64,000 bases of DNA. Source: Phoronis australis. Taxonomy: Eukaryota; Animalia; Phoronida. Shown here in pieces: positions 44,601-47,085 of the stretch; the first letter of the stretch is position 1; each line of letters starts with the position of its first letter. A program made the position numbers and the translations under genes. The stretch covers positions 186,001-250,000 of the forward strand of contig NMRA01000448.1 of NCBI GenBank assembly GCA_002633005.1, given 5' to 3'. Under the pieces are notes generated by a model. It ran no database searches and was not told the DNA's origin. It saw nothing but the letters and a program-made list of their open reading frames with translations.

Positions 44601-47085
44601 TAATTTGTCGTCAGAATCGGGTGCCAGAGTCATTAGAAGTACTCAGTGACTATTATCACCGCCGAGTGAGAAGAGTGGATTTACAACGCTATCAATAGCT
44701 CATGAAAGACCAGTTCATTCATGCTATCTTAGCCAACAGTGGCAAATCCCAGGTGGGAAAAGTTATATCATAACTGCCACAATAGTTTTATATTGGAAGA
44801 AATGAGAAACGGCAATGCCCCTGAGAAACTCGTTAATCCATAATTAATAACGATTAGAAATGTCCATCAGAATAAGAATAAGTGTAAAAACTGCCTGCAC
44901 GCATCAAAACTGTTGCCCCATGACGGATGTACAGTAAACTCTTCAATTTGGGACAACAACAATTGCTAAAATTGTCACTTCTGACGGCTCTGTAAAATTT
45001 GTCTTTCGTGACTTGAATTGCACTGTTTGTCATTTTTGTAGTATTGACTGTGCAGTGTAATGTAAATATAGGTTTCTAGATTATCCCACACATGAACACA
45101 ACTTTTTCTACAATCTGACACTGCTTCAGCGAAGAAAAGCTGGCGAAGCTCTCATAGTGTTGAGTTTGTTTTCTGGTCAGGTAGAATTAGAGGAAGCAGT
45201 CCAACACGTTTCTTGAAGAAGTGAAATATCCACCATTGGATCCAGCCACAGGTAGACATCTTGATGGCGATTGGGACAGTAAACAATGTGGCCGAGCGGA
45301 TACGTGACTTGAAGAAGCAAAAAAGATTAACAGATCCACTACTCTCATTTTTTGAGCCAAAACTCCAGGGGTCCTTGGAGAATAGCTCAAGGTCGTTTGA
45401 AGGTCAAGTTACCAGTAAACAGCACAAACTAACAGTAGCCTCACATTCGCCACAATGAATCAACCGCAATGTGAAACACGTTCTGTTGTGTAGTAGGCAT
45501 CCATGGGCTTGTTTGGAACTAGTCAGTGGCACCAACTGAGCAGAAAGAAACGTCCACAAGAAACGCGAACCACAGTATGTGCCGCAAGTCAAAACGGCCT
45601 CACAATAATAGGTATTGTTTAAACACATATTAACGAACACGACAAGAGACAGAACAAGAGGAAAGCAAACAATCAAGAGACAAAGTTAACAACAGGCGAG
45701 TTATGACTAATAAATACTGAAACATTCTGAAAGACAATCACCATTAATACCATTAAGCAAAATATAACGCTATAGCAAATTACAGTGCAATACAAAAGTA
45801 ATCAGACAAAATACCATTTCACCGGCATGACGGCTAATTCTATTAACAGCAAAAATCACTGGTAATAATTAATATGGCAACAAATTCTAAAGAATGGCCA
45901 AGTAATCTTACAAACTGTCCAGTTAATTTCCCTTCATTCTCAGTCACAAGGGAAGGTTACCATAACGATGAATTCAACTTCCGTCATATCGCTTGAATAG
46001 TTTTGATACGCACTGTTACAAAAGTCCAACAAAGAATCAACAAAGTATTGTAAGGATGCAAACCAAAATCAAATAAATTATGTGACTTTACAACAAAACT
46101 ACAGGTAAAAAAAACACAAAAACACAACAAAGGAATACGTAAAATGAATAGTGAACAAACATGCAAGGGCTGAGGGGGACAGAGATTTAGCTGTACTTCA
46201 ACCACCAGACAGGGTTAGGATCAACACAGCACAGATGATTGAGATTGCTAGGTTTCTTCTTTGCACTGCTTGGGCACAGCAACTAGACAGAGACATTCAT
46301 GGAGACATGAACACTAGGACTGGGTGTTACGGAGGGAGGAGACATGAACACTAGGCTGCTTTAGGCATTGAACGACAGCGAGTTTGATCCGGAAATTGGG
46401 AATCCACAACACCGCATCGGCAGACAGAAGACACAATACCTTAGTCGGACCCAGGCCTGAAACAGAAAATGGCCGTTGGCCGAGCGAGCTCTGAGGATGA
46501 GCAGGTGTGACGACGACGGTCAGTTTACCTGTTGGGCCTTGTGCTTCTCAGCACGCTGGCTCTGTGTGTAGATCCGGCTAAAGTTGGAGACAATAACGGG
46601 CACAGGAAGCGCGATGACGAGAACGCCAGAGAGTGAGCAGAGACCGCCCACAATACGACCGTGGTACGTGGCCGGAACCATGTCTCCGTAACTGCAAGCA
46701 GAAATCAACGGACAAACGCGGTTTAGCCGGTGGTCATGATAAACAAGGGGTTTCAGGTTAGTGGGAACGGAGATATGGGAGGTCCATGGGAGCGCGTTTG
46801 TCACAGGCAACCAGCTTCGCAGTAGAATGATAACGGAGGTGCATGCCTGAAAAGTTAAAGAACCAAAGAGTGGCAAGTCTGACGTGAACTGCACAACTCG
46901 CACACACACGGGTGATGGTTACCTGTTGCGCCTTGCGTTTATCTTGGCGCTGGCTCTGTGTGTAGATCCGGCTAAAGTTGGAGACAATAACGGGCACAGG
47001 AAGCGCGATGACGAGAACCCCACAGAGCGAGCACATGCTGCCAACTAACTTGCCAAAGATCAACTCGGGTACCATGTCACCGTAG
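26369..47085 (-). CDS. Shal: Kv4/Shal (KCND) voltage-gated potassium channel gene, 5'-partial. Exons in transcription order: [46923-47085 OR 46529-46691], 33859-34044, 27250-27378, 26369-26629
   Basis: (G)YGDMVP...[24 protein letters not shown] pore/S6; [18 protein letters not shown] and [16 protein letters not shown] (Kv4-specific HHHLLxCLEKTT motif); C-terminal VVRISTL resembling the vertebrate Kv4 IVRVSAL PDZ ligand. Splice phases are consistent. The T1-S5 exon was not found in the window. Confidence 0.93.
27250..27378 (-). CDS. Shal: Kv4 exon ([43 protein letters not shown])
   Basis: ttgcag| ... |gttagt; 129 nt; EF-x-D after KTT and CCxRR motif as in Kv4 C-termini. Confidence 0.85.
29791..30372. 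mobile_element. Probable MITE with imperfect TIRs (aagtgccgtttacac.../...gtctaaacaggactt)
   Basis: Terminal inverted similarity plus subterminal ttgacacg / cgtgtcaa. Confidence 0.4.
31661..33453 (+). mobile_element. Penelope-like element remnant: GIY-YIG fragment with inverted pLTR, left arm split by a Hero insertion
   Basis: 32877-33173 encodes [27 protein letters not shown]...LKVLESLLI...LNEQ (GIY-YIG). 31661-31777 plus 32655-32817 is the reverse complement of 33191-33453. Confidence 0.75.
31780..32652 (-). mobile_element. 5'-truncated Hero-type non-LTR retrotransposon (restriction-like endonuclease domain)
   Basis: [18 protein letters not shown]...[27 protein letters not shown]...IIEITVSW...AQERKLSKY...[10 protein letters not shown]...[16 protein letters not shown] motifs of an RLE; disrupted by stops and a 19-nt x4 tandem at 32313-32388. 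Confidence 0.8.
33859..34044 (-). CDS. Shal: Kv4 exon ([11 protein letters not shown]...[16 protein letters not shown])
   Basis: ctgcag| acceptor and |gtaaga donor; 186 nt, phase 0-0. Confidence 0.93.
34273..35400. mobile_element. Tc1/mariner-type MITE with TA TSD
   Basis: TA|ccgtaaactcgcgggttaacgccc ... gggtgttaacccgcgagtttaccc|TA; subterminal gggcg(a/c)tta repeats. Confidence 0.75.
37041..39530 (+). mobile_element. HINE/pearl-like non-autonomous element with a long internal array of diverged subrepeats
   Basis: Starts acaagagcaacgc; recurrent aaaatggccactaggagg, gtcaagtttca, aaacgctcttctcc and aaatttaatggtgcc; ends cggacatccggaca...ccac-ttattat-gtgg-gcgcataaaaa. Confidence 0.6.
41126..42406 (+). 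mobile_element. Penelope-like retroelement: RT C-terminal half plus decayed GIY-YIG, with inverted pLTR
   Basis: [11 protein letters not shown]...[25 protein letters not shown]...[30 protein letters not shown]. About 41126-41410 is the reverse complement of about 42115-42406. Confidence 0.85.
46529..46691 (-). CDS. Shal: Kv4 pore/S6 exon, copy B ([54 protein letters not shown])
   Basis: - strand acceptor tctgcttgcag|t and donor cag|gtaaac; 163 nt, phase 2 to 0; open. Confidence 0.9.
46923..47085 (-). CDS. Shal: Kv4 pore/S6 exon, copy A ([54 protein letters not shown])
   Basis: - strand acceptor catttccag|c and donor cag|gtaacc; 163 nt, phase 2 to 0; open. Confidence 0.9.

Follow-up and report, generated by a model that had tools for sequence, protein, structure and literature searches.

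Tandem pore/S6 exons of a Kv4/Shal channel gene in Phoronis australis are both spliced to a common upstream exon

The window, a 64-kb stretch (64,000 nucleotides) of the Phoronis australis genome, was found to carry on its minus strand part of a Kv4/Shal-type channel gene with two tandem, intact pore/S6 exons, referred to here as A and B. Exon A, the upstream copy (46923-47085, minus strand), encodes the end of the filter, the outer mouth, S6 and the start of cytoplasmic S6, corresponding to Kv4.2 residues 373-426, and is documented by the sequence and by RNA reads. Exon B, the downstream copy (46529-46691, minus strand), has the same length and phase and is documented by the sequence and by reads across its upstream joint. 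The two are separated by a 231-nt GT..AG intron (46692-46922, minus strand). Below B lies an intron flank (46431-46528, minus strand) that is conserved in a related species and contains a 17-nt candidate micro-exon. The next constitutive exon (33859-34044, minus strand; 186 nt), located by tblastn, encodes the Kv4 C-terminal domain PF11879 (Pfam E 1.1e-8). It is followed by a predicted 129-nt exon (27250-27378) and a predicted last coding exon with the stop codon (26369-26629), both on the minus strand and placed by tblastn, splice sites and an open frame. Neither a third copy of the pore/S6 exon nor an upstream exon encoding the T1 and S1-S5 side was found within the 64-kb window.

The Shal gene lies tail to tail with the exons of a CFAP58-like coiled-coil gene at about 10900-19200 on the plus strand, in which a PF21771 match on 14589-15308 (E 3e-5) falls under the curated cut-off. 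Remains of mobile elements were present in the Shal introns at 32350-33170, with a weak GIY-YIG match at 32871-33170, and at 41421-42472, where the reading frames are presumably reverse-transcriptase-like. The repeats at 34150-46350 attract many unrelated reads.

Sequence similarity indicates that the channel gene is Kv4/Shal. Both copies matched the Pfam Ion_trans family (E 2.5e-6 and 3.9e-7), and the best matches of exon B among solved structures were Kv4.2 and Kv4.3 (E 3e-21 to 6e-21), with Kv2 and Kv1 at 6e-15 or weaker. Given the Ion_trans matches and the match to the Kv4.2 structure, the exons are not chance open frames. The next exon carries the Kv4 C-terminal domain, as described above, and the upstream TMTTLG part was supplied by RNA reads. 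In phylogenetic trees, the C-terminal protein part from the window was placed among lophotrochozoans (support 95/95), adjoining Owenia and Lingula; grouping with Owenia received 98/81 in a 34-row tree and did not emerge clearly in a 15-row tree. AU tests rejected none of three groupings among the sequences compared, which included no phoronid or nemertean. The single annotated exon of Owenia (P0124) has Leu13 and Gln47, as in copy A, and the genome of this animal may carry an unannotated second copy.

Each of the two exons is 163 nt long, with AG at its 5' side and GT at its 3' side, and consists of one leftover base plus 54 codons in equal phase. Comparing A with B shows 35 base differences over 163 positions and 12 residue differences over 54. 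Coordinates and sequence thus agree with the anatomy given in the original prediction, which had described two 163-nt copies, 231 nt apart, with AG/GT sites, a common phase and 12 differing residues. Two neighbouring homologous exons that agree in length and phase and keep their splice sites, as here, fit the pattern of tandem duplicated mutually exclusive exons. Nine of the residue changes lie in codons 7-21 (positions 7-10, 12, 13, 16, 17 and 21) and three in codons 47-50 (positions 47, 48 and 50), where exon position n corresponds to Kv4.2 residue 372+n and Shaker residue 444+n. Positions 1-6 (the filter end and the Shaker-449 site) and 22-46 (the hinge and PVP gate) are unchanged. The predicted label of a pore swap is too strong, because the filter, the Shaker-449 residue and the PVP gate are identical and the changes fall in the outer mouth, upper S6 and the S6 bend.

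The similarity of the copies is not evenly distributed. Codons 23-45 are base-for-base identical over a 71-nt run (46948-47018 in A and 46554-46624 in B, both minus strand). In this core none of 23 codons showed a silent difference, compared with 10 of the 19 flanking codons that encode the same residue in both copies (Fisher p 6e-5). A second pair of such exons, at the metagenome locus L069, shows 14 silent changes across this stretch of codons. Recent gene conversion that homogenized the gate-coding middle is the simplest reading and a likely one; it would keep this part of the copies alike while their ends diverge. A shared splicing element that keeps the 71-nt core identical is the alternative, in view of the strong conservation of exon B in a related species.

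The reading frame remains open over 245 codons to the natural stop when either A alone or B alone is followed by the three downstream exons obtained from tblastn. When A is joined to B, the frame ends at a TAG after 91 codons, and when both copies are skipped a stop is reached 54 codons into the next exon; both frame shifts had been predicted.

Splicing was examined in raw stranded RNA-seq runs X2, X3 and X4, all from one study, in which 14, 5 and 16 reads, respectively (35 in total, from about a fifth of each run), mapped over 46431-47180. All 35 reads came from the strand of the gene, and 33 were at least 99% alike. Because X2-X4 showed no differing letters on A or B, or at the 15 listed next-exon positions at which a fourth run, X1, differs from the window, they were taken to be from the window's species. 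In run X4, five reads left the acceptor of A and seven the acceptor of B, all into an identical 30 upstream letters; translated by hand, these give the residues of the helix and filter directly before the exon. From the donor of A, 6, 3 and 3 reads in the three runs (12 in total) continued into the exon at 34044, over its first 30 bases. These counts are small; joints were listed from three reads upwards, and mates of one fragment count separately and can count twice. Both acceptors are used from a common upstream exon, and A is joined to the next exon. The reads at both acceptors contradict the possibility that only one copy is ever spliced in.

Exon A was covered in all three of these runs and exon B in two, with run X3 containing A only (five reads). 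The intron between A and B had a depth of 0 over 46706-46905 in all four runs. No A-B joint was listed among the 35 reads, for which the three-read threshold could hide rare ones. A wider mapping over 13.5 kb was swamped by repeat-derived reads, and none of the 15 joints listed (of 42) lay at splice sites. Mutually exclusive use, the central claim of the original prediction, is supported in that reads join the upstream exon to A and to B and that exon pairs occur in other animals. The joint from B to the next exon was not listed; depth at the donor of B was 1 in X2 and X4, below the listing threshold. We consider it probable that this single Kv4/Shal gene has tandem pore/S6 exons that are both spliced to the same upstream exon, with each working mRNA likely keeping one of them, and that it gives rise to two subunits predicted to differ in gating. 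B would be joined to the same next exon (34044) as A.

Run X1 derives from a related organism, and its status as RNA is a guess. X1-X4 were four of five runs listed for the region, none of them catalogued as RNA; the fifth, X5 (share 0.00), was left out. One X1 contig, of depth 10.9, ran from the upstream letters seen in X4 through the full length of B. On this contig 5 of 164 letters differed from the window, compared with 20 of 190 on the next exon (Fisher p 0.006), and all three listed changes in B are silent. Exon A had no match in X1, even at 80% likeness. A second X1 contig (46558-46431, minus strand; depth 3.5 vs 10.9, with 10 other letters) ran from the end of B into the intron, where the protein would end two codons after B; this contig could be pre-mRNA. 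The flank conserved in X1 includes a 17-nt stretch (46456-46440, minus strand) preceded by a pyrimidine-rich AG and followed by GT, which would shift the frame if included. This micro-exon is a candidate from sequence only, and no reads in X2-X4 covered it. The X1 contig of the next exon starts only 12 letters upstream of that exon, and the shape of the assembly graph would fit two upstream exons converging on it.

The unlisted joint from B leaves room for a different reading, namely that B is mainly non-productive or truncating, either running into the intron with a stop after two codons or leading to the 17-nt frame-shifting micro-exon, and that it tunes expression or yields a short subunit. 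The X1 contig that passes from B into the conserved flank with the candidate micro-exon is consistent with this, as is the depth on B in X4, which falls from 7.6 to 1 toward the 3' end. However, the reads of X2-X4 that reach the last base of B end there, with a depth of 0 over 46431-46505; moreover, the codons of B are conserved in X1, and RefSeq models both copies in the brachiopod Lingula anatina as full-length isoforms. We regard a mainly truncating B as very unlikely.

Frame shifting followed by nonsense-mediated decay is an established mechanism. Transcripts with both copies or with neither would carry an early stop and could be removed in this way. Nonsense-mediated decay is the likeliest guard of exclusivity, since no RNA pairing structure was found: for competing intronic pairings of the docking-site/selector type, none of seven region pairs exceeded shuffled sequences in this single-species comparison (for the best pair, 4 of 20 shuffles were as good), and folding of the A-B intron gave no signal (z -0.02). 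Steric blocking is not indicated either, because three branch-like sites lie in the A-B intron at 63, 160 and 213 nt from the donor. In the 123-nt L069 intron, most of the 5' half is taken up by a 20-bp stem (2693-2750) that could bring the donor and branch site close together; its z value was only -1.54, with 16 of 200 shuffles as good.

Doubled forms of the same exon were found in other animals. The Lingula anatina Shal isoforms X1 and X2 in RefSeq (XP_013382119.1 and XP_013382127.1; 625 aa each) differ at seven residues, all in this exon, and the KCND2 model of Bugula neritina (KAF6039066.1, P0002) contains two divergent copies in a row. Among 80 metagenome loci with this exon, two (L069 and L070) have two 163-nt copies bounded by AG and GT, 123 nt apart. 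Their exons are identical, so the two loci probably represent one species. The flanks of the 80 loci ranged from 18 nt to 6 kb; with flanks as short as 18 nt, single copies on short contigs prove little. The second copy of L069 has seven non-consensus residues in common with the second Bugula copy, including Leu41, and L069 was called bryozoan-like for this reason. Together with B in X1, these pairs indicate that the doubled exon has been kept under selection in relatives.

The same segment occurs in vertebrate KCND1-3 and insect Shal, and in many animals both gene models and genomic open frames are interrupted at these two exon ends. We surveyed 34 species sets of listed cluster members with at least two isoforms (13 mollusc, 1 brachiopod, 3 deuterostome and 17 arthropod). 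Two versions of the exon were present in Lingula only, and the other 33 sets had one version per species among the listed isoforms, where annotation can miss exons and the KCND2 sample consisted only of single models from different reptiles. Among the 150 matches listed from a profile search of 1.84 billion representatives, none was a further two-copy Kv4 protein. The two copies are identical in the doubled exons of Pimephales and Papilio, and the Heliothis model contains a frame-broken repeat of the same sequence; all three are likely assembly or model errors. Fourteen two-match proteins (P0318-P0331) were found to be Kv1-3 models with fused or repeated genes and not Kv4 exon pairs. In the nematode models among them (P0319-P0328), about 240-340 residues separate two Kv pore/S6 segments, which probably stem from fused neighbouring Shaw-like genes. 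Holothurian variants, with 71 changes over 626 columns, reflect species differences and not alternative exons.

The identical doubled copies in the Pimephales and Papilio gene models show that duplication artefacts do arise for this exon. For the window, an assembly or haplotype duplication, or the origin of B from another Shal gene, is nonetheless extremely improbable: 35 of their 163 bases distinguish the copies, whose introns are unrelated; transcripts link each of them to one common upstream exon; and divergent pairs exist in other animals. The notion of an assembly duplicate is contradicted by the RNA reads and by the pairs in other animals.

In all four pairs, one copy has Ala at position 47 and its partner has Gln or Thr; the chance of this split is about 0.035, a post hoc value, and two of the pairs are related. 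Exon A and both bryozoan-type second copies combine Cys21 with Gln47, a pairing found in only one of the 187 other exon sequences, which also belongs to the bryozoan second-copy type. Exon B and the first copy of L069 both have Arg12, a residue present in 1 of 187. These features were picked after the data had been seen, and the 187-sequence background is enriched for similarity to these exons. The shared Cys21 and Gln47, Arg12 and the consistent split at position 47 favour a single origin. Against it are the reversed copy order (the Ala47 copy comes first in Bugula and L069 and second in the window), the mixed nature of the first Bugula copy, which shares three residues with A and three with B, the post hoc choice of features, and the independent recurrence of tandem exon duplications described for channels (PMC9741552). 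If the origin was one and ancient, the reversed order would reflect later duplication and loss. Thus, we put forward only tentatively, as the less probable case, an ancient Kv4 splice switch common to lophophorates (brachiopods, bryozoans and the window lineage), in which one gene would encode an Ala copy and a Gln/Thr copy at the KChIP-controlled S6 bend, each with its own outer mouth, to provide KChIP-responsive and KChIP-insensitive A-currents.

Position 47 corresponds to A419 of Kv4.2, at which the cytoplasmic S6 is reported to bend without KChIP1 and to stay straight with KChIP1 (PMC8566240); exon A has Gln here and exon B has Ala. As the copies differ at this bend site, A and B would be expected to differ in inactivation or KChIP response. 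The nine changes in the outer mouth and upper S6 (Kv4.2 379-393) may affect filter packing as well as contacts with lipids or ligands, and the three changes after the gate (Kv4.2 419, 420 and 422) may alter the cytoplasmic S6 helix. The Shaker-449 site, which is reported to control C-type inactivation (PMC3557304), is Val in both window copies, in contrast to the Lingula and bryozoan-type copies, which differ there (Thr vs Val). From these residues, A and B are predicted to yield two subunits, both K+-selective, with different gating but unchanged ion selectivity. Hybrid tetramers, and differences between isoforms in sensitivity to toxins, pH or metals, may also be envisaged.

Functional equivalence of A and B, with each used singly and the differences having accumulated by drift after duplication, would accord with the identical filter, Shaker-449 site and gate, and with the clustering of many changes in positions 7-10, where residues 7 and 10 are highly variable in Kv4 channels. 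It is less easily reconciled with B being more conserved in X1 than the constitutive exon, with silent changes among those listed, and with the same split at position 47 in the Lingula, Bugula and L069 pairs (about 0.035, post hoc). Functional equivalence appears unlikely. The number of changes from the Kv4 consensus is 11 in A and 10 in B, compared with a median of 4, and at least 10 changes were present in 3 of 187 sequences; Leu8 of A and Tyr9, His10 and His50 of B are absent from the 187 other exon sequences. This distance from the consensus could also come from relaxed selection.

Alternative pore-region exons are reportedly present in spiny lobster shaker, as described by Kim et al. in 1997; that gene is a Kv1 in a crustacean, whereas the gene here is a Kv4. 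An invertebrate NALCN channel gene is reported to have alternative selectivity-filter exons kept across phyla (PMC3557258). As described there, these exons change filter residues, whereas Kv4 exons A and B share the filter (positions 1-6) and change the outer mouth, upper S6 and cytoplasmic S6. Splicing of Drosophila Shaker is reported to alter inactivation (PMC3519636). Tandem exon duplications are described as enriched in channels, with repeated independent origins (PMC9741552); one section of that source contains no Kv4/Shal event, and one supplement, beside which more tables may exist, has no Shal or KCND entry. The closest counterparts are the Shal models of Lingula and Bugula, known as database models only; there too this exon of the Shal gene is duplicated, and position 47 divides the copies in the same way. 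No duplicated pore exons in Kv4 were described in the titles and opening lines of abstracts listed by the literature searches, outside which most subscription journals lie. As far as our searches reach, the databases hold only unremarked models of this doubling. The Kv4 pair is a new instance of a known mechanism and not a new mechanism, as alternative exons are known for other channels.

The pair adds another Kv subfamily to those with exon switching in the pore region, in a segment that is nearly invariant in animals (a median of 4 changes from the consensus in 187 sequences). Isoform pairs that differ only in pore/S6 within one channel background offer ready tests of the outer mouth and S6 bend in inactivation and KChIP modulation. 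Additionally, the doubling represents either a possible shared lophophorate character or a repeated origin, and it may serve as an example of conversion homogenizing the gate-coding part of a duplicated exon.

Variation in or beside this exon was also observed in molluscan sequences. Cephalopod-like transcript proteins (P0133-P0135, P0145-P0148 and P0266-P0279) have Ser or Gly at exon position 38 and Asn or Ser at position 44, which fits A-to-I recoding of the segment as judged from these proteins; Asn/Ser44 is also an exon difference between the Lingula copies. In some Mytilus Shal isoforms (P0159, P0254, P0256, P0257, P0261 and P0263), a different residue and a short insert, of five residues in P0159, follow directly after the exon, which suggests a micro-exon at the same junction.
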